DNA from: Nemertoderma westbladi
Lineage: Eukaryota; Animalia; Xenacoelomorpha
Assembly: GCA_032718475.1 (NCBI GenBank)
Contig: JAUCBJ010006829.1
Coordinates: 12,688 to 76,687 of the forward strand
Length of the DNA: 64,000 bases
Direction: 5' to 3'
This document shows positions 11,995 through 64,000 of this stretch, piece by piece (the first letter of the stretch is position 1; each line of letters begins with the position of its first letter). The notes beneath the pieces were generated by a model. That model did no database searches and had not been told where the DNA came from. It saw only the letters and a list, made by a program, of their open reading frames with translations. The position numbers were made by a program, and so were the translations under genes.

Positions 11995-12555
11995 ACGCTA
12001 TTTCAGTACATTATTTTAGTACAATATTTCAGTAGGGTATTTCTGTACGTTATTTCAGTATGGTATTTTAGTACTGTATTTTAGTACTGTATTTTAGTAC
12101 GGTATTTCAGTACGCTATTTCAGTACATTATTTTAGTACAATATTTCAGTAGGGTATTTCTGTACGTTATTTCAGTACGGTATTTTAGTACAGTATTTCA
12201 GTACGGTATTTTAGTACTGTATTTTAGTACGGTATTTCAGTACGTTATTTCAGTACATTATTTTAGTACATTATTTCAGTACAGTATTTCAGTATGGAAT
12301 TTCAGTACGGTATATCAGTACGGTATTTTAGTACAGTATTACAGTACATTATTTTAGTACAGTATTTCAGTATGGTATTTCAGTACGTTATTTCAGTACA
12401 TTATTTTAGTACAATATTTCAGTATGGTATTTCAGTACGGTATTTCAGTACGGTATTCTAGTACTGTATTTTAGTACGGTATTTCAGTACGTTATTTCAG
12501 TACATTATTTTAGTACATTATTTCAGTACAGTATTTCAGTATGGTATTTCAGTAC

Positions 12556-13484
12556 TAGCACACTGCTATGTTAATACTTTTATTCACAAAATCATAAAAA
12601 CCTTCAGAAATACAAACACAATTATAGGCACTATAACAAACAATTAAAAACAGTAATTAGAGAAACGCGGGAAATTTAAAAAACAATTGTACAACCACCA
12701 CCAGCTGTATTTGACGGCTGCCTAGCAACCAGATTGCTATTTCAAACAGTATGTACTGCTGTACTGTGTACTGCACTGCCTACCACTGCACTGCCATTCA
12801 GCCTGTTGGGTCCGAGTTTGCATTCGCCAGGAGAATGGACGCCTCCGCGATATTGCAGCGGACTGGGCGGCGAGAAGCTGATCTACAGCCACGCAAACAG
12901 AGCAGCGACGACCTCAGCAACGCGAAACTCAGTCGCCGGCGAACCCAGGTGATACTGTCGGAGTACCGGACCTCCCTTTTGTCTGCGATCTTGTGGGCCA
13001 GGCGAGTAACAAACTGCGTGGCGGCTTTGGACATCCCGCCGAAAGCCGTGAAGATGAGGGGAGTGAAGTTGCCGTGTTCAACCTCCCTCACCCGCTCCTC
13101 GTACTTCCGGATCTTTCGGTCCTCGTGATGGCGATGGGCGGCATCCAAAGACATGGCGGCGTTCGTAGCGGCCAGCGGGTTAAATACTGAAACGTCGATG
13201 AAGGTCCTCTGGAAGCGGTTGCCCCAGAAGCCACTCACCGAAACGTCCAGCCGCGCCTGCTGGTCAGTCGAAGCGGATCGGAGGGCGAACTGCTCGCCTG
13301 TCAGTGGCTGGAGCATCGGCTCAACTGCCACATTGTGCGCCACCTCGGTAAGGGAATCAGCCACGAAATCGCGGATCTCGTTGTGCCTTATGGAGGGGAA
13401 ACCTCCAGTAGGGCACGACAGAATATGCGAAGCGGAAAATCGCTCCCCACAGGCACAACGAGCTGGGAGATCCTTAGGGGACCA
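12556..13484 (-). mobile_element. 5'-truncated CRE-like non-LTR retrotransposon, copy 2 (distinct subfamily)
   Basis: Frame open 13484-12798 (WSPKDLPARCACG...RHNEIRD...RLDVSVSGFW); AATAAA near the 3' end; probable TSD TCAGTAC 12549-12555 / 13485-13491. Confidence 0.85.
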
Positions 13485-16400
13485 TCAGTACGGTATATCA
13501 GTACGGTATTTTAGTACAGTATTACAGTACGGTATTTTAGTACTGTATTTTAGTACGGTATTTCAGTACGTTATTTCAGTACATTATTTTAGTACAGTAT
13601 TTCAGTATGGTATTTTAGTACTGTATTTTAGTACGATATTTTAGTACAGTATTTCAGTACAGTATTTCAGTATGGTATTTCAGTACGGTATTTCAGTACG
13701 GTATTTTAGTACAGTATTACAGTACGTTATTTCAGTACGGTATTTCAGTACAGTATTTCAGTATGGTATTTCAGTACGTTATTTCAGTACATTATTTTAG
13801 TACAGTATTTCAGTATGGTATTTTAGTACTGTATTTTAGTACGATATTTTAGTACAGTATTTCAGTACAGTATTTCAGTATGGTATTTCAGTACGGTATT
13901 TCAGTACGGTATTTTAGTACAGTATTACAGTACGTTATTTCAGTACGGTATTTCAGTACAGTATTTCAGTATGGTATTTCAGTACCGGATCTTACTTAGA
14001 ATGTTTCAGTTAGAGTATTTCAGTATGGTATTTCAGTACGGTATATTTTAGTACGGTATATTTTAGTACAGTATTTCAGTATGGTATTTTAGTACTGTAT
14101 TTTAGTACGGTATTTCAGTATGGTATTTCAGTACGGTATATTTTAGTACGGTATATTTTAGTACTGTATTTCAGTATGGTATTTCAGTATGGTATTTCAG
14201 TACGGTATTTTAGTACAGTATTTCAGTATGGTATTTTAGTACTGTATTTTAGTACGGTATTTCAGTACGGTATTTTAGTACGGTATTTCAGTATGGTATT
14301 TCAGTACCGTATTTTACTACTGTATTTTAGTACGGTATTTCTGTACGTTATTTCAGTACGGTATTTTACTACTGTATTTTAGTACAGTATTTCAGTACAG
14401 TATTTTAGTACAGTATTTCAGTACAGTATTTCAGTATGGTATTTCAGTACGGTATATTTTAGTACTGTATTTCAGTATGGTATTTCAGTATGGTATTTCA
14501 GTACGGTATTTTAGTACAGTATTTCAGTACAGTATTTCAGTATGGTATTTCAGTACGGTATATTTTAGTACTGTATTTCAGTATGGTATTTCAGTATGGT
14601 ATTTCAGTACGGTATTTTAGTACAGTATTTCAGTATGGTATTTTAGTACTGTATTTTAGTACGGTATTTCAGTATGGTATTTCAGTACGGTATTTTAGTA
14701 CGGTATTTCTGTACGTTATTTCAGTACGGTATTTTACTACTGTATTTTAGTACAGTATTTCAGTACAGTATTTTAGTACAGTATTTCAGTACAGTATTTC
14801 AGTATGGTATTTCAGTACGGTATATTTTAGTACTGTATTTCAGTATGGTATTTCAGTATGGTATTTCAGTACGGTATTTTAGTACAGTATTTCAGTACAG
14901 TATTTCAGTATGGTATTTCAGTACGGTATATTTTAGTACTGTATTTCAGTATGGTATTTCAGTATGGTATTTCAGTACGGTATTTTAGTACAGTATTTCA
15001 GTATGGTATTTTAGTACTGTATTTTAGTACGGTATTTCAGTATGGTATTTCAGTACGGTATTTTAGTACGGTATTTCAGTATGGTATTTCAGTACCGTAT
15101 TTTACTTAGAATGTTTCAGTTAGAGTATTTCAGTATGGTATTTTAGTATGGTATTTCAGTACGGTATATTTTAGTACGGTATATTTTAGTACAGTATTTC
15201 AGTATGGTATTTCAGTACCGGATTTTACTTAGAATGTTTCAGTTAGAGTATTTCAGTATGGTATTTCAGTATGGTATTTCAGTACGGTATATTTTAGTAC
15301 GGTATATTTTAGTACAGTATTTCAGTATGGTATTTTAGTACTGTATTTTAGTACGGTATTTCAGTATGGTATTTCAGTGAGGGTATTTTAGTACAGTATT
15401 TCAGTACAGTATTTCAGCATGGTATTTCAGTACGGTATATTTTAGTACGGTATATTTTAGTACAGTATTTCAGTACAGTATTTCAGTATGGTATTTCAGT
15501 ACCGGATTTTACTTAGAATGTTTCAGTTAGAGTATTTCAGTATGGTATTTCAGTATGGTATTTCAGTATGGTATTTTAGTACTGTATTTTAGTACGGTAT
15601 TTCAGTATGGTATTTCAGTGAGGGTATTTTAGTACAGTATTTCAGTACAGTATTTCAGTATGGTATTTCAGTACGGTATATTTTAGTACGGTATATTTTA
15701 GTACAGTATTTCAGTATGGTATTTTAGTTCTGTATTTTAGTACGGTATTTCAGTATGGTATTTCAGTACGGTATTTTAGTACAGTATTTCAGTACAGTAT
15801 TTCAGTATGGTATTTCAGTACGGTATTTTAGTACAGTATTTCAGTATGTATTTTAGTACGGTATTTCAGTATGGTATTTCAGTACGGTATTTTAGTACGG
15901 TATTTCAGTATGGTATTTCAGTACCGGATTTTACTTAGAATGTTTCAGTTAGAGTATTTCAGTATGGTATTTCAGTATGGTATTTCAGTATGGTATTTCA
16001 GTATGGTATTTCAGTATGGTATTTCAGTATGGTATTTCAGTACGGTATATTTTAGTACTGTATTTCAGTATGGTATTTCAGTACGGTATATTTTAGTACT
16101 GTATTTCAGTATGGTATTTTAGTACTGTATTTTAGTACGGTATTTCAGTATGGTATTTCAGTATGGTATTTCAGTACGGTATATTTTAGTACTGTATTTC
16201 AGTAGGGTATTTCAGTACGGTATTTCAGTATGGTATTTCAGTATGGTATTTCAGTACGGTATATTTTAGTACTGTATTTCAGTATGGTATTTTAGTACTG
16301 TATTTTAGTACAGTATTTCAGTATAGTATTTTAGTACTGTATTTTAGTACAGTATTTCAGTATGGTATTTTAGTACTGTATTTTAGTACGGTATTTCAGT

Positions 16401-19267: not shown

Positions 19268-20187
19268 TTGACTAGTGTAAGGTGCCATACTCGCAAAATG
19301 ATTGCCTGAGTATTTAATCGTGATTCTTTAGAATAATAATTGCTAATTTATTTCGTTGAGGTGTTGACATGATAAATTAATATTTCAGTATCTATAATAT
19401 CGGCATAAGGTAAGTTTTAATATTTTTTGCAAATTGGATCGCCTCTATGCCTAAAACTCAAAATTTTATTTCCAGTTGCCGTTACACACACAAATCCTCT
19501 GTGCGCCTTTGGGTTGGGGTGGTGCAGATTAAGAGGGGGTTGAAGGGGGGAACAGTAGTCAGCCAGCAACACCCCAACACACTAATAATAGCTGCAGGAA
19601 CCAGCTCCAATGATAATAGTGATTTTATTAATCGGTTCTATGGAGAAAAGTCACGCTCCTCCCCATCCTGATTGATCTGTCTACTATTGGAATTACTCAT
19701 CTGTAAATTTGATAACCAATATGATATTAACTACATCTATACCATTAAATTGTGTATTGTGATGTGTGACTGGGACATTGACTGTTGTGATATTTCGAAT
19801 TTCAACCACAGTATTGTGGAATTACTGTAGCAATGGGTTCAGGGCGTGGCCTAAGATAAAAGTTTACGATATTGTCGTAAACAGTAAATGTAATAAATTT
19901 AATGCGTTCTAAATGAAAAAATTTTCCCCCGAAATATAACTTCGATCTTATATCCTTCTTTGCTGACTAGAATAACCCCATTTCCTTTACTAAACGAAAT
20001 ATTCCAAATTTTCTCTTATCTCTTCCCAGTGCCCAGTAGTGCAGCTAATTACTTGTTAGAAGTAAGTTCGTTGAGTAAGTTGATAGTTGGAACAGATCTT
20101 GTGGAAGCTGCAACACAATCTTTAGAAAGTAAAGACTTTTATTCCAAGCGGACAATAGTTTGTCAGCTTTTCATTTATTTTAAATGT

Positions 20188-22677
20188 CTTCTGTTGAAAG
20201 GCCAATATAAAAGTTGAAAGGCTTTCTTATCCCAGATGTGATTGGCTAACTCATTCTGTTGAAAGGCCAATATAAAAGTTGAAAGGCTTTCTTATCCCAG
20301 ATGTGATTGGCTAACTCATTCTGTTGAAAGGCCAATATAAAAGTTGAAAGGCTTTCTTATCCCAGATGTGATTGGCTAACTCCTTCTGTTGAAAGGCCAA
20401 TATAAAAGTTGAAAGGCTTTCTTATAGCAGAGATATGATTGGCTAACTCCTTCTTTTGAAATGTCAATATAAAAGTTGAAAGGCTTTCTTATCCCAGATA
20501 TGATTGGCTAACTCCTTATCTTGAAAGGCCAATATAAAAGTTGAAAGGCTTTCTTATCCCAGATGTGATTTGCTAATTCCTTCTGTTGAAAAGCCAATAT
20601 AAAAGTTGAAAGGCTTTCTTATCCCAGATATGATTGGCTAACTCCTTCTGTTGAAAGGTCAATATAAAAGTTGAAAGGCTTTCTTATCCCAGATATGATT
20701 GGCTAACTCCTTCTGTTGAAAGGCCACTATAAAAGTTGAAAGGCTTTCTTATCCCAGATATGATTGGCTAACTCCTTCTGTTGAAAGGCCAATATAAAAG
20801 TTGAAAGGCTTTCTCATCCCAGATATTATTGGCTAACTCCTTCTGTTGAAAGGCCAATATAAAAGTTGAAAGGCTTTCTTATCCCAGATATGATTGGCTA
20901 ACTCCTTCTGTTGAAAGGCCAATATAAAAGTTGAAAGGCTTTCTTATAGCAGAGATATGATTGGCTAACTCCTTCTTTTGAAATGTCAATATAAAAGTTG
21001 AAAGGCTTTCTTATCCCAGATATGATTGGCTAACTCCTTCTGCTGAAAGACCAATATAAAATTTGAAAGGCTTTCTCATCCCAGATATTATTGGCTAACT
21101 CCTTCTGTTGAAAGGCCAATCCAATATAAAAGTTGAAAGGCTTTCGTATCCCAGATATGATTGGCTAACTCCTTCTGTTGAAAGGCCAATATAAAAGTTG
21201 AAAGGCTTTCTTATCCCAGATATGATTGGCTACCTAATTCTGTTGAAAGGCCAATATAAAAGTTGAAAGGCTTTCTTATCCCAGATATGATTGGCTAACT
21301 CCTTCTGTTGAAAGGCCAATATAAAAGTTGAAAGGCTTTCTTATCCCAGATATGATTGGCTACCTAATTCTGTTGAAAGGCCAATATAAAAGTTGAAAGG
21401 CTTTCTTATCCCAGATATGATTGGCTAACTCCTTCTGTTGAAAGGCCAATATAAAAGTTGAAAGGCTTTCTTATCCCAGATATGATTGGCTAACTCATTC
21501 TGTTAAAAGGTCAATATAAAAGTTGAAAGGCTTTCTTATCCAGATGTGATTTGCTAACTCCTTCTGTTGAAAGGCCAATATAAAAGTTGAAAGGCTTTCT
21601 TATCCCAGATATGATTGGCTAACTCCTTATCTTGAAAGGCCAATATAAAAGTTGAAAGGCTTTCTTATCCAGATGTGATTTGCTAACTCCTTCTGTTGAA
21701 AGGCCAATATAAAAGTTGAAAGGCTTTCTTATCCCAGATATGATTGGCTAACTCCTTATCTTGAAAGGCCAATATAAAAGTTGAAAGGCTTTCTTATCCC
21801 AGATATGATTGGCTAACTCATTCTGTTGAAAGGTCAATATAAAAGTTGAAAGGCTTTCTTATCCAGATGTGATTTGCTAACTCCTTCTGTTGAAAGGCCA
21901 ATATAAAAGTTGAAAGGCTTTCTTATCCAGATGTGATTTGCTATCTCCTTCTGTTGAAAGGCCAATAAAAGTTGAAAGGCTTTCTTATCCCAGATATGAT
22001 TGGCTAACTCCTTATCTTGAAAGGCCAATATAAAAGTTGAAAGGCTTTCTTATCCCAGATATGATTGGCTAACTCCTTCTGTTGAAAGGCCAATATAAAA
22101 GTTGAAAGGCTTTCTTATCCCAGATATGATTGGCTAACTCCTTCTGTTGAAAGGCCAATATAAAAGTTGAAAGGCTTTCTTATCCCAGATAAGATTGGCT
22201 AACTCCTTCTGTTGAATGGCCAATATAAAAGTTGAAAGGCTTTCTTATCCCAGATAAGATTGGCTAACTCCTTCTGTTGAAAGGCCAATATAAAAGTTGA
22301 AAGGCTTTCTCATCCCAGACATTATTGGCTAACTCCTTCTGTTGAAAGGCCAATATAAAAGTTGAAAGGCTTTCTTATCCCAGATATGATTGGCTAACTC
22401 CTTCTGTTGAAAGGCCAATATAAAAGTTGAAAGGCTTTCTTATCCCAGATAAGATTGGCTAACTCCTTCTGTTGAAAGGCCAATATAAAAGTTGAAAGGC
22501 TTTCTCATCCCAGACATTACTGGCTAACTCCTTCTGTTGAAAGGCCAATATAAAAGTTGAAAGGCTTTCTTATCCCAGATATGATTGGCTAACTCCTTCT
22601 GTTGAAAGGCCAATATAAAAGTTGAAAGGCTTTCTTATCCCAGATATGATTGGCTAACTCCTTCTGTTGAAAGGCCA
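20188..22677. repeat. 65-bp tandem repeat, about 38 copies, inside a GPCR intron
   Basis: Unit TTCTGTTGAAAGGCCAATATAAAAGTTGAAAGGCTTTCTTATCCCAGATATGATTGGCTAACTCC; period of 65 verified at 20221/20286. Confidence 0.97.
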
Positions 22678-23572: not shown

Positions 23573-24358
23573 TATTGATACAGTTCGGAGGGCGGGTTGA
23601 CCTCAGGTGACTAGTGAAATGAATATTGTTATATTATTGAATATGGTTATTACACGTTTTCTCCCAACAGGGCTTCTTCAGGTAATTATGGAATTATTAT
23701 GTAGGAACAGAGAAACTGCACTAAAACTAATACAGGACTATGTAAGGTCTACTAACTCAGTACAGCTGTGTACCGGTACAGAGTTGGACTAACTACTTTC
23801 TGACTGCTAATCTACTGTATTACTAAGCTAATAAAAAGCATTGCACCTACTGTAGATTGAATTGTTAAAGGCGTGTGGTTTCAAATTGCGGAAAATACAT
23901 TAGTTAGCAATAGTACATAAAACAATATAGAACACCCAAAAAAAAATATACAGAAGATTACAATTGAATAGTGCACCAAAATAATAAAAAAAAATAATAC
24001 AAAATTTTGGGTGTACTATATTTTTTTGTGTACTATTATTGCTAACCAATGTATTTTCCGCAATTTGAAACCACACGCCTTTAACAATTAAATCTAGGTA
24101 CAATGCTCTTTTTAGCTTAGTAATACAGTAGATTAGCAGTCAGAATGTAGTTAGTCCAGCTCTGTACCGGTAGACAGCTGTACTGAGTTAGTAGACCTTA
24201 AATAGTCCTGTCTTAGTTTTAGTGTAGTTTCTCTGTTCATACGTAATAATTCCATAATTACCTGAAGAAGCCCTGTTGGGAGAAAGCGTGTTATAACTGT
24301 TGTTATTAATTTCATTAGTCACCTGAGGTCAACTCGCCCTACCCGAACTGTATCAATA
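23573..24358. mobile_element. Foldback/MITE: near-palindromic element with ~370-bp arms
   Basis: TATTGATACAGTTCGG... / ...CCGAACTGTATCAATA; arms align to ~23940 and ~24005; TA|CAGT near the ends resembles Tc1/mariner termini. Confidence 0.85.
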
Positions 24359-25329: not shown

Positions 25330-25901
25330 GACCATTAATATATATGTAAAGGGGGCAATACATTGCCTGTAGGCTGACATTTTTCTCTGGCCTCCAATCA
25401 ATACACTCACAAAACTGACATATGATGGCCTCCAATCGTGGGACTATCTTCTCTTGGACTAGTCTCCCAATCTGGCCCCATTGGGTTTGATCTCACTACC
25501 CAACCTTGGAAAACCTTTGTTTCGGTATTCCAAGGTATGTGGCGTCTCTATTTAGATGATCGCTTCTTCATCACGCAATTTTAAATTGGGTACCATTATA
25601 TCCGATCCGCCAGGCCCAATTTCTTCACTTCTCACACATCTCATTAGTCCCATAGGACTCATCCCTTATCCGACTTGCTCCCTTACATTTTCTGGATATC
25701 ACACCCTTCACCACTCAACCTCACCCTGTTCTCTCATCCTCACTCTCGTTGGGTTCCTACAGTCTCACATGCGTCATCACACATGACGCGATGACTGCGG
25801 TTATTATGGTCTCGTCCAGTGGTGTTTGTCTGTCATATTGTCACTAAGACCCCCCTCCCACTAGCTCGTTGAGATGGGGTATATCTGACTTTATTCGAAC
25901 C
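25330..25901 (-). pseudogene. Old BEL/Pao relic E, integrase-side piece (related to element B)
   Basis: Across the element A insertion the minus strand reads KQQQV...PHLNE..GVLV, like B's KQQHL...PQLNDDGILV; heavily degraded, left boundary approximate. Confidence 0.45.
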
Positions 25902-27086
25902 TGTAAAAGCTTTTGCGGAATTAGCCGGTTATTTTCCCCGCAAAGTACTCTGTAGTTGGTTTAACAGGCATAAAAGGCCGTATCCTTACTGTACTGGTGT
26001 TTTAGTGGACATACAAAGCCATTTCTTCTGTATGTCTACTTTAGCGGACATAATTAGCAATTCTATGACGCAATGCGCTAGATCCTCTTGAAACAGTGTA
26101 GTTACTATGACGACAGCTAACAGCTGAGCTGTACACGTGTAGCTTTTTCCTTGTTCTCTGATGTTTCTTTGTTCGGTCAACCAATCAGAGCGATTCTCCT
26201 GCTTTTTGTACAGAAACCTCCGGGAAATCGCGCAATGCATTATGGGTCAATGTTTACATTTTGTCCTGAGCCCAGAAGACCGGCTTTTGGAATCTCTGTG
26301 TTTTCAGTCTTTAGCCCAACATTAGTAGGCTTAATTATAGAACGTATATCTGTTATCGAATCATAACAAACCATATCATAACTCACTAAACATATCAATC
26401 AAACTTAACTTAACATTTTACTGCTATTTACTGTCGGTTATTCATTATATCTGTTGATGGAATATTATTATATTTGGAATACCGATAAATAATTACAAAC
26501 CCTCAATCTTCTTGATATACTGAAGGTAAGAGAGACCGGTTACATATAACGATTGCGATTTACATTAAAGTGGTTTTGAAGTGAATCTAATGCTATTTCA
26601 AGGCACTACATGTATTGGCTGTTGTTCTCTTTATATGTGACTAAAATTAGTGAAGGTCGGCAGATCAGTGTGCAGCATTGTGCAGTATTGTGTATGATTG
26701 TGACTGATAACAAAGCATCTCCTAAAGAATGCGCCATATACGTGAATCTATAGCCATCCCGTTGTGTCTAGTTTAAGTCATAACTCTGTTTACATATTTA
26801 GAGCGCCACGTCCTAAAGGAACTGTTAATATTTCCCGAAAGTGAATAATATTTGTCAGAGATTATATATTAACGATCAGTCGAATAATACAGTAGGCCTA
26901 CACCGCAATACAATTAGGCTTCCGAATCCAGTCTCCCAGGTATATCCAACGGGTGAATGATCGCGCATAGACTGGCTTCGGCTAATGTAGTGTATCAAAT
27001 ACTCGTCATAGGCTAAAGTCGATTTATTATCTAGAAGACATCCAAATTTGGCAGGTTAAACTGCTAAAGGTCTGAAAGCGCGAACA
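25902..27086 (+). repeat. 5' LTR of element A
   Basis: TGTAAAAGC...GCGCGAACA; direct repeat of 37391-38574. Confidence 0.95.
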
Positions 27087-27098
27087 ATAACAGATATA
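27087..27098 (+). promoter_or_regulatory. Non-tRNA primer-binding site of element A (ATAACAGATATA), complementary to its own LTR at 26345-26356
   Basis: No TGG; exact reverse complement of TATATCTGTTAT in the LTR; compensatory variant in element D. Confidence 0.7.
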
Positions 27099-27367: not shown

Positions 27368-27945
27368 TAGATAATTTGTAGGCTGGACTGTTGTCTGACT
27401 GTTGTTAAGTCTGAAGGGACTGTAGTGTGTGTAGAGCGTATGTCCGAAAAAGTACTAGTTAGGAAAGTAGGGGCTTCCAGAGCTGTGAGGTAAACCCCCT
27501 CGAAAGAATAAGTCGTACTACTCGGTTAGAACGCATACTAACTAACCATTTCGGAGTCTGCATATACTGTAGTGTATTTAGGCTTGATAGTAGTCTGCCA
27601 GCGTTTGGTCTGTATTTTGTTTGTGTAGTTTGTACGTAGCGTAATATTTCTTATTTAGATAATTTGTAGGCTGGATTTTGCCTGGCTGTTGTTAGGTCTA
27701 AAGAGATTTCGGTGTGTGTAGAGTGTATGTCCGATAAAGTGCCAGTTGGGAACGTAGGGGCTTCCAGAGCTGTGAGGTAAACCCCCTCGAAAGAATAAGT
27801 CGTACTACTCGGTTAGAACGCATACTAACTAACCATTTCGGAGTCTGTATATACCGTAGTTTGTTTAGGCTTGATAGTAGTCTGTCAGCATTTGGTCTGC
27901 ATTTTGTTTGAGTAGTCTGTACGCGTAGCGTAATATTTATTATTC
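27368..27945 (+). repeat. Tandem duplication (~288 bp x2) of a structured leader motif in element A
   Basis: TAGATAATTTGTAGGCTGG at 27368 and 27656; both units are conserved in element D (~62787-63362). Confidence 0.9.
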
Positions 27946-29182
27946 AGAGTTTATGCGATTATTCGCAACATTCATATCCCCAAGTTAATTCCTACAGTAA
28001 TTGTGCTTGTTATATATACCGTTATAGTTAAACTAACCCCGGTACTACATCAGGGCTGCTTGGCGTAGGTAAAGACTGGTGATTTTGTGCCCCGGTCACT
28101 CCAGCAGATACCATGGTTCTTTTAGCTGTTCAAGTATTTTAACTACTGATTATTTGTTGTATAAGTACTTGTACCTAATTTAGGGTTTAGTGTACAGTGC
28201 TTTCCGAAGGTAATTAGTGTGTAGGCAGTATATTTGTGTTGTAAAGTGGTTAATAGGCACGTTGGTTCTGGTAGACCGCGGTAATTAACTTCTAGGTAAG
28301 AACACTCCGTGATACATAACGTAGTACTTATAGCGATACGGCTATAAGTCGTCAGACGGTGGTATTTTCCTATCTGGACAACGCAGTATATTTACTACTA
28401 CTTATTATTTTCAAATACCGTAGTACCCTGTCCGTTTGTAATAACCAGATATTCTAACCCTTTGTTAGGCTGGTTTGTAGACTTCTTGTAAAATTACCCT
28501 AAAAATTCGTACGTGTAAATTTTGTGTTTATTTAGAGATTGTAATCTCACCCCGAATTGTACGTAATTTGTAGTATTAAGTAACTTAGGTAAATTAGAAT
28601 TATTTGTTTTTAGTGTCCAACAAGTAGCACTTCACTGAGAGCGCACAGCTTCTGTGTAGTGACTCCTTCCCAGAAATAATAACATTTATTTCAAACATTG
28701 ACAAACCCATTAAACGGGTATATATATATTATAAATCAACTCAAACGATTTATAAATAGTAGGCCTGTCTTACAACAATTAGGTCTTAATGTCAGTTGGA
28801 CTACTGCTTAAATAACGGTAATCAAGTAAAGTAAAGTAACCAAGTAACCCCTAAAATTCAGAAATTCAATTATTCTAAAATAATTGACATGCCGGTATTT
28901 ACAATAGGCTTATTATATTTATTTCCATAAATTTAGGCTGAAATTATACTGGTATTCTGTAATTAATTCTAGTTCATAATTATACTTATCTATACTATAA
29001 GTATCCAACAGTACTATAAGGTCCAATACCGTAGGTCTATCATAGGCACTCGAGCTCAGGTCAAGCGGGACCAAGAAGCAGCGGAACAGCAACAACCCGC
29101 GAGCCGAGAACTTATTTCTCAGCGGCCCGACAGCTCCGGTAGTGCGGATACTGTAGAGCTGACACCCGAGCACGGAGCAAAG

Positions 29183-32100
29183 ATGACAGATGCGGTTTAT
29201 TCGGATCCCCTTCTCATCCTTCCTGCAGCCGTACTCACTAGGTTATTGATTGCGGTGGAGGAACACCAGATCGATTGGGGGAGAAATAAGCGATCGACTA
29301 AGGATAGTTATGCGGGATACACAAGGGAAGAACTGAAGTCTATTGTCGAGTCGCAATGGAACTTCCCCGGACCCGGACTCCCGTTTGACTTATCAGAAGC
29401 TGCCTGGGAAGACATACACAGGATGGGAGTAACCAAGGAAACCATCGATCCAGCTGTGTGGAAGAGGTCCGCAGCCGGATACGTACAGGGATTCTTCAGC
29501 TCCATGGAGCGATTAGAAGAACAATTGTTTAGACAACCACAAGGACCTCAAGAGCAGGGAGAGCTGCTTTATCAAGTTCGAGAAAGAATTCTAAGAATGA
29601 GACTAATCCTATCGGCCTTTGAGGAGGCTTCGAAAAGGAAACAAGACACGTCGTTGCAAGTTGCCGTAAAGACTTGGTTACAGCGGGTGAGTCTCCAAGT
29701 TCAAAGAACTGCCCCATGGAAATCTCAGTTAGCTGAGCGCTCAACCCATGGAGAATCCACAGACGCTACATTTTCCCAAGTGGAAAGTGAAGCTACGGTG
29801 GAGAAACCGCATAAGAGGGATGCTATTGACATCTATCTGTCGGACTATCAACGTTTTGTAGGAGATGAAGAGTTGAGGAGAAGGCTAGATGGACTTAGCC
29901 CTAATAGTGAAGGAGCCAAGCTTGTGTTGGACGCAATCGATGTGGATAGGTTAGCTGCGAACCAAGCTAAATTCAATGAAAGCATCCGCATCACTAAGGT
30001 TCAAGAGGAACAAGTAAGGAAAAAACGTATAGAAGACAGAAAGACAGCAGCAGCGGCAGCGGCAGAAGTAGAAGCGGAAAGAAAGGCAGCAGAAGTGGAA
30101 AGAAAAGCGGCCGAAGCGGAAAGAAAGGCGGCAATGGCATCGGCCGAAGCAGAAAGAAAAGCGGCAGTGGCAGAGGCAGAACGGAGGGCATCTGAAGAGA
30201 CAACCCAACTAGAGTTGGAAAATCTTCAAGAGAGGCAGGACAACTTCAATAAACAGTTAACAGCTAGTCAAATGCAGATGATGAGTCGATCTACTCCCAA
30301 ACGACAGGGATATACATCATCTGAGGAAGGCGATACCACCGATACTGAAGGTGGAGGAAATAGATCTCGTCTCAGCAGATGTAGAAGGATGTCCCAACGT
30401 CAGAAATTGCCTGATTTGCCCCCAACTGTTCGAAAACAACTAGCTAGCACAGACTTAGGTAGTACAGAACCCCTAGACCAAATTATTAAAATAGACAGAC
30501 TCCCTACTATAGTAGATGAGCCTGAAATAATTAGGCCTGTTCTCGAAGCCACCACTTTGGTGATAGAGACACCTGTACTCCCAGAACCTACCTCTAGATT
30601 CCCTTTGCATAGCACTAAGCTACCTGTGCCCAGCAGAACAGCCCAGGAGACAGTTCATGTCCTGGACTCCGAGCGAAATATTAATGATTTGCCGCCCGTT
30701 GTCCCTCGTCCGCCCGCTACAACGTTGGCGACTCCCGCTTCGGCGGTCAAGTGGGTGGATGAGAGACAGCGGGGGATGGATCTCCTGCTCGGGCAGATGC
30801 AGGAGACTGTTAAGCAGTTCAAGGGCACAGTAAGGGAAAGTAGGTTAGAGTTGCAAGAAGTGCAGCAAAGTATCGCGTTAGAACGCGATAAATTAGTAAA
30901 TACACAAAAGGGTATACCACCACCCCCGGTAACAATGTGTCAACCTGTTAGGTCTGAAGTATCTCATGCGCAAGGTGTGGAGCCTACACGCATCTATACT
31001 GCTAGCGAAGTAGAAACTCCTATAGTGAACCCTATTAAGGGTAATTATAAACCTGTTGACAATGATATTCCCTATAGACCTGATCATAATCCGAGAAATT
31101 TATATACCGATAACTCGATATTAAATAACACGATGGCCCAAGAAAATTTTACGCGTCAAATGGCTAGAACCGAAGCCCGTCAAGCGGTAAAGGTGGGAGA
31201 GATAGTCAAGTTCAATGGAGATGAGATGAAATGGTTACCTTTTAATGAATATTACAAAGATAACATACAGAACTCTGTGCTATCTAATGGAGAGAAACTT
31301 AGATTCCTCATCGAGTGCTTGGAAGGATCTCCCAAGTTAATGGCGTTAAAGTTTATTGGACATCCAGATGGATTAAGACAAGTTTGGGATACACTAAACA
31401 TCAGGTATGGTAATAGGAATAACATAGCTAAATATTTGTATGCAAAATTAGTAGCGCCCCGAAAGTTCATTAGTAGCGGGATAATAGAGTTTTCCGATGA
31501 GATTCAAGAGATCTGTAGACAATTAGATTGGTTAGGTAAGTCTCATGAATATCAGAGTTCTATGGTTATTGGAGCCGTGGCTTCTACTTTACCGAAGGGT
31601 GGAGTAGGTACACGCTGGGATAAGAAAGTGTTATATATGATGGAACAACAACGACGAGACCCTACCATGTCTGATCTCATGTCATTCTTAGATGGAGAAG
31701 TGAAATTACAGCTCCTAAAGCAGTCCAGAGAGAAGACACCGGAAAACAAGGTAAGTGAGAAACCCGTTTCTAGGAGAAAGGTAACACCAGTGTGTTATAC
31801 CGACGACGGCGAAAGCCAGACTTCTCAAGGGGAGGATAGCGGGAAAGACACTGAAAGATCTTATTATGTCAATAAAACGCCTAAAGAACAGGTAAGTAAA
31901 TTCAAGTCTCGAACCAATGACAGGAGAGAACAGGTAAGAAAAACTCCTCCTACGTCTCCTAAGAGAATTCAGGTGAGAAAGCCCGAAGAAAGAACGAGTG
32001 TACACCATGTTATTCAAAATAAGGTAAGTAACATAAAACCGAAATGTGTGCTATGTGACGGGACCCACCGTTTGAATATGTATGATGAATTCCTGAAGCA

Positions 32101-32356
32101 ATCATTAACGGAGAGACGGGAAGTCATGTGGGATAAGCGGTTGTGTTATAATTGCCTCAGACAAGGACACCAACGGCGAACCTGTTACTCCGACACAAGG
32201 TGTGCAAAGTGCGGTGCGAAACATCATATCTTGTTGCACACTGAATTTGAGCGAAACAGCCAGAGTCAGGTAAGTGATTCCGAACTACATGTCCAATTCA
32301 GTGATGTGAACGACACTGACCAAAGTTCTGAGATGGAAGGATTCTATACGGATTAA
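29183..32356 (+). CDS. gag: Element A Gag (coiled coil, BEL capsid-like region, three Cys/His knuckles)
   Basis: KFNGDEMKWLPF...KLRFLIECLEG; CVLCDGTH, CYNCLRQGHQRRTC, CAKCGAKHHILLH; a TAA separates it from the in-frame pol. Confidence 0.9.
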   Translation: MTDAVYSDPLLILPAAVLTRLLIAVEEHQIDWGRNKRSTKDSYAGYTREELKSIVESQWNFPGPGLPFDLSEAAWEDIHRMGVTKETIDPAVWKRSAAGYVQGFFSSMERLEEQLFRQPQGPQEQGELLYQVRERILRMRLILSAFEEASKRKQDTSLQVAVKTWLQRVSLQVQRTAPWKSQLAERSTHGESTDATFSQVESEATVEKPHKRDAIDIYLSDYQRFVGDEELRRRLDGLSPNSEGAKLVLDAIDVDRLAANQAKFNESIRITKVQEEQVRKKRIEDRKTAAAAAAEVEAERKAAEVERKAAEAERKAAMASAEAERKAAVAEAERRASEETTQLELENLQERQDNFNKQLTASQMQMMSRSTPKRQGYTSSEEGDTTDTEGGGNRSRLSRCRRMSQRQKLPDLPPTVRKQLASTDLGSTEPLDQIIKIDRLPTIVDEPEIIRPVLEATTLVIETPVLPEPTSRFPLHSTKLPVPSRTAQETVHVLDSERNINDLPPVVPRPPATTLATPASAVKWVDERQRGMDLLLGQMQETVKQFKGTVRESRLELQEVQQSIALERDKLVNTQKGIPPPPVTMCQPVRSEVSHAQGVEPTRIYTASEVETPIVNPIKGNYKPVDNDIPYRPDHNPRNLYTDNSILNNTMAQENFTRQMARTEARQAVKVGEIVKFNGDEMKWLPFNEYYKDNIQNSVLSNGEKLRFLIECLEGSPKLMALKFIGHPDGLRQVWDTLNIRYGNRNNIAKYLYAKLVAPRKFISSGIIEFSDEIQEICRQLDWLGKSHEYQSSMVIGAVASTLPKGGVGTRWDKKVLYMMEQQRRDPTMSDLMSFLDGEVKLQLLKQSREKTPENKVSEKPVSRRKVTPVCYTDDGESQTSQGEDSGKDTERSYYVNKTPKEQVSKFKSRTNDRREQVRKTPPTSPKRIQVRKPEERTSVHHVIQNKVSNIKPKCVLCDGTHRLNMYDEFLKQSLTERREVMWDKRLCYNCLRQGHQRRTCYSDTRCAKCGAKHHILLHTEFERNSQSQVSDSELHVQFSDVNDTDQSSEMEGFYTD

Positions 32357-35300
32357 TTCTCCGACGAAGATGAATCCTGTTACATGATAAATACCGCAGT
32401 GTATCGAGCACTTACGTATGAAAAAGACACAGACAGCGACCTCATCCTAACTACTTCTGATCAACAACCATCTTGGAAAGCGCCAACTTCCAATGTAGGA
32501 ATCCGAGAATTTCCTGTAGTACAGTTAAGGGTCCACGGACCTAAAAGGAGTTATATAGTGAACGCCCTTCTTGACTCCGGTAGTACAGGAACATTCATTG
32601 ACAAAGAACTAGCCGAAGACATCTTTGCTGGACAACCCAAGTTCCGAACTAAGCTAAACATGTCAGGAATTATGCAGGTTTGGAAATCTACAGTAATAGC
32701 GGATTATTATGTAGGTGCGTTGTCCACACCCCAGGATGAACTAGGAGAACATAGTATAAGGTCAGTAAAGATGGTGGCGATAAAGAACTTCGCTACCAGC
32801 CAAGTGGAACCTTATAACTGGGATGAGGACGATTTCACCCAGCAGCTTGAAATACCTAGATTCAACACCGATTACCCTGGAGTGCAAATACTCATCGGTC
32901 AAAACGCGCATGAAGCGCTCGAGACATTGGAGAAACGGCCTGCTCAACCGCAACCACTACAAGCTTATGCGGGAAGAACTAGAGTGGGTTGGTACTTTAC
33001 TGGCCCTTCCCGTAGAACTCTCATGGAAAGATTACCGAAAGATCAGGTATATCAAGTAAGAGAATGGGAAGTTGAGAGCAGTGAGTTAGACGATCCAACT
33101 GAGGGAACACCATACTCCTCAGATAATGACGATGTCCACCAACTCTTCGACGAGGAGAATACCATTGATCTCCTTAAGGAAAACGAGACTTGGCAAAACC
33201 AAGTGAACTTATGTCAGCTCCTCCGTCCATCAGAACGAGACGTCTATAACGACGAACTGAATGACTTCATTGAACGTTGTAATGCCAAGACTCGGGATGA
33301 ACACGCCGTACGATTCTTTACTCAAGAGGCTGTAGAGCCCAATTCCTACGATAAGGCCCTATCGGTAGAAGAAGAAAGAGCCAAGCAGATCCAAGAGACA
33401 ACTACACGTTTTCTTAAAGATCAAGGTAGATATGAAATCGGTCTACCTTTCCAAAAGCGAGAACCAAAGTTCATAAACAACAGACCCTTGGCGGAGAAAA
33501 GAATTGCTCAACTACATCAACGCCTTACGGCAAATTCTTCAGCTAAAGAAATGTATCAAACGCAGTTGAAGAAATTTATTAGCAAGGGATATGCGGAGTG
33601 AGTACCGGAAGAAACACCTATAACTGAGAGAACGTATTATTTAACTCACCATTACGTTCCCAAACCCGGTAAACCCCATGAGGTACGAGTGGTGTTTGAC
33701 GGCTCCGCCCTCTATATGGGCCAATCCCTTAATTCCGAATTGTTACCCGGACCCAACTTACTCCAATCCTTGTTGGGAATACTCTTAAGATTAAGACAAT
33801 ATTCAATCGCTTTCGCTTCAGATATAGAAGGCATGTTCTTACAAGTCAAGGCGCTGGATATGGATCGAGATAGCCTACGATTTCTGTGGTGGCCTGAAGG
33901 AGACCTCAACCAGAAACCGGTGGAGTACTGGATGACCATCCAGGCTTTTGGGATAATCTCAAGCCCTTCAAACGCCTGTTCAGTGGTGCGCACCACTGCG
34001 GATGACAACCGAGAAGCCTTCTCTAAAGAGGTGATTGACAACATCAAACGGGATATATACATGGACGACAATCTAAAGTCCCTTCCATCAGTCAAAGAAG
34101 CCATTGATGTCGCTAAAGGAACGGTAGAGTGCTTAAAAAGAGGTGGATTTCGATTAACTAAATTCACCAGCAACTCCCGTGAGTTTCTGGAATCGATCCC
34201 GGTAGAAGATCGAGGAGCGAAAGACCTAGATCTAATCAAAGATGATCTTCCAGAAACCAAGACACTTGGTTTGAAATAGGACACAGAGAGAGATATCCTG
34301 TTTTTCCAGCTAAAACAGCGAGATAATCCAGTTCGGACTAAACGGATTTGTTTAAGTATCCTGAGCACTTATTTCGGATTGGGATTTATTAGCCCAGTTA
34401 TATTGATTGCTCGGAGTTTAGTACAACAAATGTGGCTTGAAAACCACTCATGGGACGATCCACTTAAGGGAGAATTATTAAAGAAGTGGATGAAATGGGA
34501 AGATTCTCTACCAGCCATCGAGAACTTTATAATTTCCCGTTCATATTTTGGTCATGTTCTCCCTACGTATTCCTATCAACTCCATGTGTTTGGAGACGCC
34601 AGCGATATGGGAATAGGTATAGTAGCCTACCTAAGAGTGGAAACTCCAGATGAAATCAAAGTCGCCTTGGTTACCTCTAAGGCATTGATAAACAACAAGT
34701 TGAAAGTTCCTCGAGCGGAGTTAAAAGCGGCTCTATACGCTACAGCCATCGGCCGGAATGTAACAGAACAGATCGACTATCCACTGGAGAAAACTGTCTA
34801 TTGGACCGATGCTTTACTCGTGTTGGAGTATATAACCAATGAAGTCTGTCAGTTCAGCGTCTTCGTTACCAACAGAGTAGCTATTATACTCAGTCGCACG
34901 ACGATGGATCAATGGAGACATTGCCCCGGAACGCTCAATCCAGCAGACATCGCCTCCAGGGGAGCTACTCCACAAGAACTGGTAGATACTCCAGACTGGT
35001 TAGGTGGACCCGACTTCCTCTACAAAGAAGAAGAAGAATGGCCTCCTCATCTTACTACGGCAGAGATCAGACAGGCCAAGGGAGCGGAGAAAGTCAAACC
35101 TAAAACTCGGGCGAGTAAATCGAAGTTATTCAAACCTATGGTAGATCTGTCTGTACTACATACTTCCGGAGACGACGCTTTGGATCAGAAACCCACAGCC
35201 ATAAATAAGATTGGAAATCTGGAATACCAGACGTCTCGCAAGGACTCTCACCTCTCCTGCAGGGAGCGATACATCACTACAGTTCCTGGAATCGGCTCTG

Positions 35301-36720
35301 TAAAGCCGTTACATATTTAAAAAGATGTTTTCATCATCACTACTCCGGGACGAAGACCAAAAGTGATACCGCTCCGCTGACATTGGTGCAGGTCCATGTT
35401 GTTAAAGATCTTCCCAAATATAAGATATCCGACAGGTTTCTGAAGGAGAAGATCAGTTATCAGGAGCATGAAGAAACCAACAAGCAGATGCTGAGACTCC
35501 TACAATGCTATGAGGATTCCGATAAGTATTTCCTGTTGTTGAGAAATCCACAGATGCGCTTACGGGATCGTTTCTCTAGCACAATGATAGATGGGTTGAT
35601 ACGTGTTGGAGGAAGATTAACGAATGCTCCATTATCCTTTGACACTAAGTTTCCCATACTCATTAGAAATCTTGAAATACAAGTCAAGATGATTGTAGAT
35701 GTTCACAGCAAACTTTATCATGCTTGTAGAGAACGAGTTCTTAGCGAAATTCGAACTCGCTATTATTTTTATAAACCCCGTAGAGCTCTGAACCAAGTTC
35801 TTAGGAACTGCATACCCTGTAGGAAAGCATTCAGTAGGCCTTTAACACAGCGAGAGGCAGAATTACCTAGGGAAAGAGTAAGCTTCTATGAACCACCCTT
35901 TACTAATACCGGTGTAGATTTATTTGGCCCTATTGAAGTATATCGTGCTAGGACTATAGTCAAGAGATGGTGTGTCATCTTTGTTTGTATGACTTGTAGA
36001 GCTATCCATCTCGATATGGTGAACGATTTATCTACCAACAGCTTCCTATTAAGCTTACGACGACAGATCGCTCGCTTTGGCACTAGTAACACGATGAGAT
36101 CTGATAAGGGAACAAACTTCATTGGTGCCAACAATGAAATCAAAGCTTACGTCAAAGATTGGAACCAAAGACAGGTGGACGATCAGCTAAGGGTAACAGC
36201 GTCTAGCTGGACCTTCAACGCCGCCGACGCCCCTTGGTGGGGAGGAAGTTGGGAGAGATTAATTAGAAGTGTGAAGACCGCATTTCACTTTATAGTGCCG
36301 TGCCGCGCGTATCTCACCGACGAACTTTTGCGGACGTTAATGGAGGAAATCGCCACCTATCTCAACGAGAGACCGCTTATGCCAGTCTCATCGAGTCCCG
36401 ATTCCCTGGAAGCGCTAACACCCGCGCACTTCCTACTGAAGAAACCTGTAGCCATGCTCCCATGATTGGAAATCACAGACGGAGACGAATACTGCCGGCA
36501 AACTTGGCAACTCATGCAGTTGTTATCCCGTCGTTTCGCTGACCATTTCGAAAAACATTATCTGCCCACGCTACAACTTGGTTTGTAGCGTGGTTTGCGC
36601 AGCAAGAAAACGTCAGCGCTGGAGACATGGTCCTTACTGTGGATGCAGATCTTCCACGTAAGTGAATGAGTCCCGCCATCGCTATTACCCTGGACGCTCT
36701 TACGAGGGAGTTTACGCGTT
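32357..36720 (+). pseudogene. pol: Element A Pol (protease, RT, RNase H, integrase) broken by stops and frameshifts
   Basis: LLDSGS protease; RVVFDGS, DIEGMFLQ and YMDD RT; FGDAS RNase H; H..H...C..C and GVDLFGP/SDKGTNF/WERL integrase; split over ORFs starting 32384, 33689, 34379 and 35383. Confidence 0.92.
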
Positions 36721-37390: not shown

Positions 37391-38574
37391 TGTAAAAGCT
37401 TTTGCGGAATTAGCCGGTTATTTTCCCCGCAAAGTACTCTGTAGTTGGTTTAACAGGCATAAAAGGCTGTATCCTTACTGTACTGGTGTTTTAGTGGACA
37501 TACAAAGCCATTTCTTCTGTATGTGTACTTTAGCGGACATAATTAGCAATTCTATGACGCAATGCGCTAGATCCTCTTGAAACAGTGTAGTTACTATGAC
37601 GACAGCTAACAGCTGAGCTGTACACGTGTAGCTTTTTCCTTGTTCTCTGATGTTTCTTTGTTCGGTCAACCAATCAGAGCGATTCTCCTGCTTTTTGTAC
37701 AGAAACCTCCGGGAAATCGCGCAATACATTATGGGTCAATGTTTACATTTTGTCCTGAGCCCAGAAGACCGGCTTTTGGAATCTCTGTGTTATCAGTCTT
37801 TAGCCCAACATTAGTAGGCTTAATTATAGAACGTATATCTGTTATCGAATCATAACAAACCATATCATAACTCACTAAACATATCAATCAAACTTAACTT
37901 AACATTTTACTGCTATTTACTGTCGGTTATTCATTATATCTGTTGATGGAATATTATTATATTTGGAATACCGATAAATAATTACAAACCCTCAATCTTC
38001 TTGATATACTGAAGGTAAGAGAGACCGGTTACATATAACGATTGCGATTTACATTAAAGTGGTTTTGAAGTGAATCTAATGCTATTTCATAGGCACTACA
38101 TGTATTGGCTGTTGTTCTCTTTATATGTGACTAAAATTAGTGAAGGTCGGCAGATCAGTGTGCAGCATTGTGCAGTATTGTGTATGATTGTGACTGATAA
38201 CAAAGCATCTCCTAAAGAATGCGCCATATACGTGAATCTATAGCCATCCGTTGTGTCTAGTTTAAGTCATAACTCTGTTTACATATTTAGAGCGCCACGT
38301 CCTAAAGGAACTGTTAATATTTCCCGAAAGTGAATAATATTTGTCAGAGATTATATATTACGACCAGTCGAATAATACAGTAGGCCTACACCGCAATACG
38401 GTTAGGCTTCCGAATCCAGTCTCCCGGGTATATCCAGCGGGTGAATGATCGCGCATAGACTGGCTTCGGCTAATGTAGTGTATCAAATACTCGTCATAGG
38501 CTAAAGACTATCTATTATCTAGAAGACATCCCAATTTGGCAGGTTAAACTGCTAAAGGTCTGAAAGCGCGAACA
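37391..38574 (+). repeat. 3' LTR of element A
   Basis: Direct repeat of 25902-27086 followed by TSD GAACC. Confidence 0.95.
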
Positions 38575-38579
38575 GAACC

Positions 38580-41269: not shown

Positions 41270-41721
41270 ACTAACTAGTTCTACAACTAACTACTACTCT
41301 TACTAGCCGGTACTACGTACCCCCCTACTAACTCCTCTAACTCTACTAACTATCGGTACTACGTACCCTCTTACTACTTCTCTAACTCTACTCTTACTAG
41401 CCGGTACTACGTACCCTCTTACTACTCCTAACTCCACTAACTATCGGTACTACGTACCCTCTTACTAACTTCCAACTCTACTCTTACTAACCGGTACTAC
41501 GTACCCTCCTACTAACTCCTCTAACTAACGGTACTACGTACCCTCTTACTACTTCTAACTCCACTAACTATCGGTACTACGTACCCTCTTACTACTTCTA
41601 ACTAACTAACTCCACTAACTATCGGTACTACGTACCCTCTTACTACTTCCAACTCCACTAACTATCGGTACTACGTACCCTCTTACTACTTCTAACTCCA
41701 ACTCTCGGTACTACATACCTC

Positions 41722-52211: not shown

Positions 52212-52229
52212 ATCCGGGTCCAGGCACCA
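52212..52229 (-). promoter_or_regulatory. Canonical tRNA primer-binding site of element C (TGGTGCCTGGACCCGGAT)
   Basis: TGG starts 3 nt inside the 5' LTR end; complement ...ATCCGGGTCCAGGCACCA resembles a tRNA 3' end (His/Phe-like; isotype not determined). Confidence 0.85.
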
Positions 52230-59574: not shown

Positions 59575-60210
59575 CTTATCTTTGCTTTAGATCGGTGGCT
59601 GGTAGATTTTAGTTCTAATACTGTGACGGGATCCTAGGAGGATCCCGGTTTATCCGGTTGTTGTAATTACGCGTCCCCGCTGTGTGTATGTGAAAAGATC
59701 GTTTTGAGAGTCCTGATGTTATTAATTCTCCGATATATGTATGATATAAACGTCAAATGGATATAGTGTATAGAATGAGATAACTGATTAATTTACGGTA
59801 TGTACTGAATACTAATAATGGCAGTAGACGGGGACGGTATTAGAAGTCACCGCTCTACCCTAGCTAACCGACTAACAGAATGAAATAACTAACTACAATA
59901 ACATGATGACAGGTAATATATATTGCACGGTTTGGCCGTTGTTACAGTACCTAGCCGGTGCCTTCCCCCCATTGGCTAATAACCTTGTTGGCGCCCTTTG
60001 GAGTGTTTCCCCTCACTCCTTCTATTCTCTCTCTGTCAGGGGTATGGCCCCTGACCCCTATTGTGTGTTTCTCCTTCCCACTTTGTTGGGGTGGCACGAG
60101 GTTGGGTAATCAACCTCGTGGCCCCCAATATTGCTTAACGGCTTACTTTGTGGGGTGTTAGCGGAATTGGATAAGCTAACAATGACTGTGTTTTGACGAA
60201 CAGCACTTCA

Positions 60211-61291: not shown

Positions 61292-64000
61292 TGTAAAAGC
61301 CTTTGCTGAATTGCCCCGTTATTTTTATTATCTTTTACATTAAAATACTCTGTAGTTGATTTAATAAGTGTAAGAGACCGTATTATTGCTGTATCGGTGT
61401 TTTTAGAGGATCTAAGACCTATTTCCTCCGTATGTGTACTGTGAAAGGCATATTTTATGATTCTATGGCAATTCGTGACGCAAAGGGGTGATAGCTACTC
61501 TTGAACAGTAGTTACTATGACTACGGTTAACAGCTGACATTCATACGTGTTGATTTCCTTTGTTCTACGGCGTCTCTCAGTTCAGTCAGCCAATTAGAGC
61601 GTTTTTGTGGCTCCTTGTACAGAAAATTTCCGAGAAATGACGCAATGCCTATGTGCAGTGTTTACATTCAGTCCTGAGCCAAAGAAAGAACGGCTTGGAA
61701 GTATTTTGTGCTTTACTGTTTTAGCCGTACACTAGTAGGCTTAATCATAAGGACATATATCCGTTATCTAACTTGACTAACCTAACTCAATGCATACTGC
61801 AGTACTGCATACACTGCATACTGTGTAACACTGTGCATACTTTATATTGTTATACTGCTATTTGCTGTCTGTACTTCATAATTTGGTTGATGAATTATTA
61901 TATTTGGAATAACGATAAATAACCCCGAAAACCCAATATTCTTGATATACTGAAGGTAAGAGAGAAAGGTTATACATAACGATTGTGACTTATGTTAAAG
62001 TGGTTTGAAGTGAATCTAATGTTATTTGATAGCCCCTACATGAGTCAGTCCGTGTTCCTTTTATATGTAACTAAAATCAGTGAAGATCGGCAGATCAGTG
62101 TGCAGTATTGTGCAGCATTGTGTGCGGGTGATACTGATAACGAAGCATTTCCTAAAGAATGCGCCATATATGTGAATTATAACTAAGCCATATCGTTGTG
62201 ATTAGTTTAAGTCATAACTCTGTTTATATAGATAGAGCGCCACGTCCTAAAGGAACTGTTAATATTCCCCGAAAGTGAATAATATTGTCAGAGATTATAT
62301 AATACTGTCAGTCGAATAATACATTAAGCTTACATAGCAATAAAATTAAGCCGTCGAACCCAATCTCCCGGGAATTATCCAGCGGGTGAATGATCGCGCA
62401 CAGATTGGTTTCGACTAGTGTAGTGAATCAAATATTTGTCATCGGCTAAAGTGATTTATTATCTAACAGACATCCTAATTTGGCGGGTTAAACTGCCAAA
62501 GGTCTGAAAGCGCGAACAATAACGGATATAGCTTCTTTATTGCAGTAAGCAATAAAGTCGAAAGTACCGGTCGACCGGTAACCAGTAGGCCTGACTGCCT
62601 GATCATCCGGACCGGTACCTACAGCAGTATTATTCGATTTTGATAATTATATACCGGTAGGCCTTAATAATTAATCAGGGAGGGCCCGCCCTGGTTTTTT
62701 ATTGAGATTTTTACTTATTTCTGTCAAGTTTTATTTATTTGTAGGCCAGTATTGAACAGAAGGCGTGTAAGCCTGATCAGATTGTACAGACTATTTGTAG
62801 GCTGAGCTGTTGTCTGATTGCTGTTAAGTCTGAACGGATTACAGTATGTGTAGAGCACTTGTCCGATTAAGTATGGTTAGGAAGTAGGGGCAGCCAATGC
62901 GGTAAGGTAAACCCCCAACTAAAGAATAAGTCGCACTACTGGGTTAGAGCGCATACTCCCTAATCATTTCGGAGTCTGCATGTCCTGTAGTTTATTTAGG
63001 CTTGAGAGTAGTCTGCCATCGTTTAGTCTGTACTTTGTTTGTGTAAGTCTGTACGGGTAGCGTATAATTTTATTTAAATAATTTGTAGGCTGGATAGTTG
63101 TCTGGCTGTTATTAAGTCTGAACGGATTGCCGCGTGTGTAGATCATCTGTCCGATTAAGTACGATTAGGCAGTAGGGGCAGCGAACGCTGTAAGGTAAAC
63201 CCCCGACTAAAGAATAAGTCGCACTACTGGGTTAGAGCGCATACTCCCTAATCATTTCGGAGTCTGCATATACCGTAGTTTGTTTAGGCTTGATAGTAGT
63301 CTGTCAGTGTTCGGTCTGTATTTTGTTTGAGTAGTTTGTACGCGTAGCGTAATATTTATTATTCAGAGTTTATGCGATTATTCGCAACATTCAATTCCCC
63401 AAGTTTGTTCCTACAGTAATTGTGTTTGTTATACATACCGCTATAGTTAAATTAACCCCGGTACTACACAGGCTGCTCGGCGTAGGTAAAGACTGGTGAT
63501 TTTGTGCATCGGTCACTCCAGCAGATGCCGTGGTTCTTTTAGCTGTTCAAGTATATTTAACTACTGATTATCTGTTGTACAAGTACTCATACCTAATTTA
63601 GGGTTTAGTGTACAGTGCTTTCCGAAAATAATTAGCGTAGGCATTATATTTGTGTTGTAAAGTGGTTGATAGGCACATTCGATTAGCTCTATTAACTTCT
63701 AGGTAGGAACACTCCGTGATACATAACGTAGAACCTATAGCGATACGGCTATAGGTCGTCAGGCGGTGGTATTTTTCTATCTAGACAACGCAGTGTATTT
63801 ACTACTACTTATTATTTCAAATACCGTATTACCCTGTCCGTTGTAATAACCAGTTTCTAACCCTTTGTTAGGCTGGTTTGTAGACTTCTTGTAAAATTAC
63901 CCTAAAAATTCGTATTTTGTGTTTTTTGTAAATTTTTGTGTTTATTTAGAGATTGTAATCTCGCCCGAATTGTACGTAATTTGTAGTATTTTTTTTTTTT
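61292..64000 (+). mobile_element. BEL/Pao element D (sister subfamily of A): 5' LTR 61292-62518 plus leader, running off the window
   Basis: TGTAAAAGC...GCGCGAACA LTR homologous to A, followed by a leader collinear with A 27087-28580; predicted TSD AGGAG. Confidence 0.92.

Follow-up and report, generated by a model that had tools for sequence, protein, structure and literature searches.

Candidate self-priming in BEL/Pao retrotransposons through complementarity between the primer-binding position and the element's own LTR

The family profile of the Belpaoviridae gives an 18-nt primer-binding site (PBS) for tRNA-Arg or tRNA-Gly, and a host tRNA is the primer (ICTV profile, PMC8742986). What, then, primes reverse transcription in a BEL/Pao element whose 5' LTR is not followed by such a site? 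This question is raised by a stretch of 64,000 nt from Nemertoderma westbladi (the window), in which an earlier note had reported no TGG tRNA site after the 5' LTR of an element called A; we find the same for A and also for its sister D. We propose that A, D and a third element, B, use their own transcript's 5' end to prime minus-strand DNA, by a fold-back and a cut resembling those of Tf1, and we regard this as reasonably probable. The features are collected in Table 1.

Table 1. Positions in the window of the features of elements A, B, C and D.
Feature	Position	Strand	Basis or remark
A target-site duplication GAACC, 5 bp	25897..25901, second copy 38575-38579	+	flanking repeat
A 5' LTR, 1185 bp, TG...CA	25902..27086	+	1170/1185 identical to 3' LTR
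A predicted transcript start	26344-26346	+	predicted
A predicted self-primer, contiguous 12-mer	26345..26356	+	complement observed, role predicted
A predicted cut	after 26356	+	predicted
A GTAAGA, splice-donor-like motif, conserved in D	26526..26531	+	170 nt downstream of primer
A primer-binding position, no TGG, complements 26345-26356	27087..27098	+	exact reverse complement
A gag-pol, BEL/Pao type: DUF1759, RT, Peptidase_A17, Integrase_H2C2	28973..36580	+	Pfam, tblastn
A 3' LTR, short purine tract upstream of it	37391..38574	+	LTR comparison
C tRNA-type site, 3 nt past 5' LTR (52233-52510)	52212..52229	-	TGG start
B primer-binding position, immediately past terminal CA, no TGG	59613..59621	-	complement
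B 5' LTR, 560 bp, separate BEL/Pao family	59622..60181	-	3' LTR 39761-40320, duplication GTCAT
B predicted self-primer, contiguous 9-mer	59837..59845	-	complement of post-LTR bases
D LTR, sister family of A	61292..62518	+	943/1227 identical to A
D predicted self-primer, C replaces one T of A	61756..61767	+	exact complement
D primer-binding position, G replaces one A of A, compensatory	62519..62530	+	exact complement

The ends of the A LTR were set independently of any pairing, from the 3' LTR and the GAACC duplication. LTRs of the TG...CA form with 5-bp target duplications (GAACC in A, GTCAT in B), a BEL/Pao feature, are present, and the PR-RT-RH-IN order and the Pao-type domains of A and B fit BEL/Pao as well (the order was obtained by tblastn, C included). 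Several in-frame stops and one frame change interrupt gag-pol of A. D extends past the end of the window, with its coding part outside, and is assigned to BEL/Pao through its DNA identity to A (81% over 2760 nt). Like the Belpaoviridae, the present elements have LTRs of 0.2-1.2 kb, a gag-PR-RT-RH-IN layout, a short purine tract and an animal host, but the 18-nt tRNA PBS of the family profile is not present in A, D, B or the relatives described below (PMC8742986). By their predicted protein features, the elements stay within BEL/Pao despite the missing tRNA PBS. Both A (27368-27948) and D (62793-63357) retain a tandem duplication of ~288 bp in their long leader. The identity between A and D drops steeply at 26357, one base past the primer; the same position is the start of contig joints in runs X1, X3 and X4. 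Elsewhere, the window holds tandem arrays at 532-1447 (22-nt units), 7703-8553 (19), 10032-14600 (13), 20039-22421 (65) and 41265-41855 (~43), together with large inverted repeats at 2166-6395 and 23633-24310.

In A, the exact reverse complement between the post-LTR bases and the LTR, as first read from the sequence, is correct in its letters and coordinates: the pairing begins at the first base past the terminal CA, the match ends at 12, and the loop, put at ~730 nt, measures 730 nt. A 10-nt second copy of the motif occurs at LTR position 545, in A only. Both sides had been said to have changed together in D. Indeed, an A-to-G change in the PBS is matched by a T-to-C change in the LTR, which makes one Watson-Crick covariation; the odds that the sole LTR change lands on the partner of the sole PBS change and restores the pair are ~1/36. 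The further statement that the flanks differ holds for the LTR side, where 16 of the 20 bases ahead of the 12-mer and 13 of the 20 behind it are identical, and fails for the PBS side, with 20/20 and 18/20 identical. Could such a match arise by chance in AT-rich LTRs? The probability had been given as ~1e-4, and the real value is somewhat higher: among dinucleotide-shuffled LTRs, 20000 for each element, the 12-mer is contained in 15/20000 for A and 6/20000 for D. Sliding 12-mers along the repeat-rich window yields matches at 268/79576 positions, A and D share ancestry and are thus not independent cases, and the complement of B is only 9 nt, all of which favors coincidence. Against it stand the position, fixed at the LTR end, the A/D covariation and the counts among relatives given below; we therefore hold chance to be very improbable.

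Contigs of four runs from the source organism reveal a very high-copy family that carries PBS variants. A>G at 27092 reaches 202903/290609 of the depth in X1 and 166941/206469 in X3, and C>A at 27091 reaches 108662/295318 (37%) in X1 and 87602/206500 (42%) in X3. Among the 40 of 354 rows listed, none falls on the LTR partner positions 26351 and 26352. From 27073 onward, run X5 (contigs of organism B) has a related LTR end followed by a different post-LTR sequence.

Two further elements of the window can be compared at the same position. B, whose RT is 42% identical to that of A and whose LTR is unrelated to it, carries DUF1759, protease, DUF5641 and integrase domains. Its post-LTR bases also complement its own LTR, and 0/100 null leader positions reach the 9 nt observed. 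C, a BEL/Pao element with an open frame of 1732 aa and identical LTRs (278/278), is the internal control: it has no self-complement at the primer-binding position, and its site reads as tRNA-type from the TGG start, the tRNA itself being putative. No tRNA gene was found within the 64-kb window. The insertions are nested, as B (39761-60181, minus strand) contains a plus-strand RVT_1 element (44503-45888, 52501-53451), which is in turn split by C (45817-52510).

Relatives were collected through RT alignment and comprise 79 metagenome loci, from the best 80 of 574 relatives, and 12 loci from metagenome-assembled genomes (MAGs). Their RT is 36-51% identical, and the best protein hits are to corals, a crinoid, a nemertean, fish, abalone and a brittle star. 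Twelve contigs with a BEL/Pao-like RT (L080-L091) lie in bacterial MAGs of the GTDB collection; they are likely host-animal DNA misbinned there. After inspection of 37 loci for repeat ends, 16 were chosen in which both LTR copies have clean ends. A TGG start after the LTR occurs in 0/16 of these two-LTR relatives, one of which has TGG within its complement. In 14/16, contiguous complementarity at offset 0 does not exceed the null. Because the contiguous complement is mostly absent, a junction test was devised. With offsets of 0-6 nt allowed, the best complement in most two-LTR relatives lies directly behind a pyrimidine tract and YAG, and the following PBS bases match the 3-9 nt that precede an upstream GT(A/G)AG. 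Under junction rules that were fixed after this pattern had been seen in the same 16 loci, two pairs of which are duplicates (GT[AG]AG donor, YAG with 12/20 pyrimidines, intron 50-600, offset 0-5), a junction-spanning complement of 11-15 nt is found in 15/16 loci, against a null in which 3/2000 leader positions reach 11.

The sole fresh test is a de novo scan over a further 55 loci, which needed at least 300 nt upstream and left out 20 loci: 16 reach at least 11 nt, against 3/220 shuffled or reversed controls, and 39/55 stay below 11 nt, many of them probably on contigs without an LTR. Nine of the 16 positives are families absent from the first set at 95% RT identity. With both sets of counts set against their nulls, chance is rejected for the clade. 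When RT identity cut-offs of 95, 80 and 70% are applied, the positives amount to 22, 20 and 14 families, respectively (L091 has no RT row). In the sisters L083 and L085, three donor-side bases differ and the PBS bases change to match, and L081 has one mismatch (10/11). A relaxed scan of 28 loci, run with no null, gives leads only: contiguous complements of 12 and 11 nt in L031 and L072, and split ones in L032, L061, L080 and L084. Outside the RT-based collection, the exact LTR-end/PBS pattern had 0 matches in metagenome contigs, and a viral-contig scan with RT alignment gave 34 pattern matches with no relative among them.

The LTR introns of the relatives would be canonical GT-AG introns at consensus-predicted sites. 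Since the complement becomes contiguous only once the GT-AG intron is removed, the pairing is likely to act at the RNA level. In L011, L023, L036, L039 and L050, the two LTR copies align over their full length at 96.5-100%, which indicates that the intron is being inherited. In a quick RT tree, the families with a split complement are scattered over a group of 89 rows (support 84), with A and B outside it on long branches without firm placement; the tree does not discriminate between a contiguous ancestral form and loss of the intron. The tRNA-independent priming that the earlier note proposed for a BEL/Pao lineage is supported, at the sequence level, by B and ~20 related families; B and the splice-assembled form are additions to what that note had claimed.

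A different role of the pairing has to be weighed at this point, namely that it is a regulatory RNA structure, for packaging, translation or splice sensing, and that the primer is another RNA of the host, for example a fragment from inside a tRNA. Several relatives have GTTCGAA in their sites, which we take to resemble a tRNA T-loop. Half-tRNA primers exist in Copia lineages, according to parts of PMC6317226. However, the ~20 families have different site sequences, each matching its own LTR or junction, the post-LTR sites appear too varied for tRNAs, and the pairing begins 0-5 nt past the end of the LTR, the place at which a primer has to terminate. The primers also share the A(C/T) 3' end described next, and we consider a regulatory structure with a host primer improbable.

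The common features of primers and LTRs were compiled from 31 rows, A, D and B included, that were picked for having a match and are related to each other. The primer ends at its 3' side in AC in 22, AT in 6 and CT in 3 of these rows (A[CT] background 12.7%), and the base after the primer is C in 22/31, A, D and B among them. Primer lengths range from 9 to 15, with exactly 11 in 13/30. In 18/30, with 4.3 expected, a CA step is found at most one base from the primer 5' edge; a generic pyrimidine-purine step at this edge was rejected as a feature, as it is not enriched (23/30 vs 20.7 expected). AATAAA is found downstream of the primer in 16/30 LTRs and upstream in 1/30, a distribution that places the primer in R; the A LTR lacks AATAAA altogether and, ahead of the primer, also a TATA motif. 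In 19/30 LTRs (A, D, B and 27 loci; expected 4.7), the primer is preceded at 14 nt by GGA, often as GGAC, which is possibly a core-promoter element. An extended duplex past the core, plausible by eye, was discarded because it is not above shuffles (z of -1.2 in A, -0.7 in D and -0.9 in B), and the covariation at PBS position 19, a second one between A and D, was dropped along with it.

When the whole 5' RNA is folded with a start 1 nt before the primer, the predicted duplex probability is 0.83 in A, 0.97 in D and 0.95 in B; it becomes 0.03, 0.14 and 0.54 with a start 30 nt before the primer, and 0.03, 0.84 and 0.54 with a start 100 nt before it. The predicted start near 26345 fits this folding model. 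The CA step at the primer edge and the sharp limit on complement length are further indirect signs that the complement may be the first bases of the transcript. Pointing the other way, some relatives have TATA motifs 77-240 nt upstream of the primer, from which the start would fall well before it. A further possibility is that the primer comes from the element's RNA without being its capped first bases in cis: it may be the 3' terminus of a longer 5' fragment with a start 80-240 nt upstream, or else a short transcript of the LTR, spliced in the relatives, that anneals in trans to unspliced genome RNA. With such a primer, the template would not have to retain its intron. In agreement with it, two families carry TATA motifs 133-135 nt upstream of the primer, poly(A) signals 0-133 nt past the primer in many LTRs make short LTR RNAs possible, and the modeled D duplex also forms with the start 100 nt upstream. 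On the other hand, the complement ends sharply at 9-15 nt whatever the split, with 11 as the length noted above, the pairing past the core is no better than in shuffles (mean z -0.33; 2/28 below -2), and the modeled A duplex is nearly lost with either upstream start. A longer or trans-acting primer is thus rather unlikely in our judgment.

We return to priming by the 5' end of the element's own transcript. The transcript would start at the complement or one base before it, and its 5' end would fold back on the primer-binding position next to the LTR. The RNase H of the element would then cut after A(C/T), past base 9-13, and the cut RNA would prime minus-strand synthesis into U5. The primer would remain on the minus strand and be copied into the PBS by plus-strand synthesis, so that changes in the primer reach the PBS within one cycle; this would explain why the covariation is perfect rather than G-U. 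The primer would be uninterrupted in A, D and B, while in most relatives a first exon of 3-10 nt would be spliced to exon 2 to give it, and copying of a spliced primer would mean that the PBS in split families records a spliced RNA. The strong-stop DNA of these families would lack the intron, which lies upstream of the cut, and under the standard LTR model the intron could be passed on only by copying of the unspliced 3' LTR template. Two routes may be envisaged: splicing could be confined to the 5' copy of a single RNA, or an unspliced RNA could be primed in trans by a spliced one. On balance, we think it somewhat more likely than not that a large BEL/Pao lineage of aquatic animals has given up tRNA priming for self-priming, that most of its families would use a spliceosome-built primer with an unspliced 3' LTR, so that a 5' end could prime only once spliced, and that A, D and B would be the intron-free form.

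Tf1/sushi, Tcn1, Tj1 and, among plant Copia elements, the TAR lineage are described as self-priming or predicted to be so (passages of PMC6317226, PMC4600332 and PMC6934838). In Tf1, the first 11 bases pair with the PBS and RNase H cuts (a section of PMC7175516); about half of the Tf1 cDNAs bear the reverse-transcribed PBS at their 3' end, and the PBS begins with ATAAC (a section of PMC11042837). The A (27087-27091) and D (62519-62523) sites open with these five bases, which may reflect chance or a common cleavage preference. Like A, D and B, Tf1/Tf2 of S. pombe, Tj1 and the Tf1/sushi-Tcn1 elements have no tRNA site, as far as portions of PMC7175516, PMC4600332 and PMC6317226 describe them. 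The Tf1 group also has ~11 nt past the 5' LTR that complement an LTR segment; here it is 12 (A, D), 9 (B) and 11-15 (relatives). The present elements differ from that group in having BEL/Pao and not Ty3/Gypsy proteins and no chromodomain by Pfam; A differs by its 730-nt loop and most relatives by the intron-split primer, and the Tf1-type start and cleavage are likened here from the sequence alone. The elements would thus work like Tf1 in self-priming, yet without membership in Tf1/sushi. For the TAR lineage of plant Ty1/Copia (Houba, Osr-1), self-priming was predicted from at least 10 complementary bases 0-5 nt past the 5' LTR, according to excerpts of PMC6317226; A and D have such a complement and B, with 9 nt, does not, and the lineage belongs to another superfamily and another kingdom. 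The blastn search for contiguous complements described in those excerpts would miss junction-spanning ones.

Novelty had been left to a literature check, in which no paper was found that treats self-priming in BEL/Pao or a primer spanning a splice junction; a prior remark may stand in the papers of 2001 on Suzu and on Tf1/sushi, in Repbase or GyDB, or in supplements. By term search, the available parts of the BEL/Pao surveys PMC3118150, PMC554778, PMC2774666 and PMC6238403 have no discussion of the PBS or priming, and those of PMC3601003, PMC8220671, PMC8672886 and PMC12451622 have nothing on BEL/Pao self-priming. If the proposal is true, self-priming would account for such elements being missed by PBS-dependent annotation, and BEL/Pao would be the third superfamily with Tf1-style self-priming. 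The splice-built primer, if confirmed by RNA data, would be a new mechanism of starting reverse transcription. It would couple replication of the element to host RNA processing, and it would need the LTR copies of one RNA population, although identical, to undergo different splicing.
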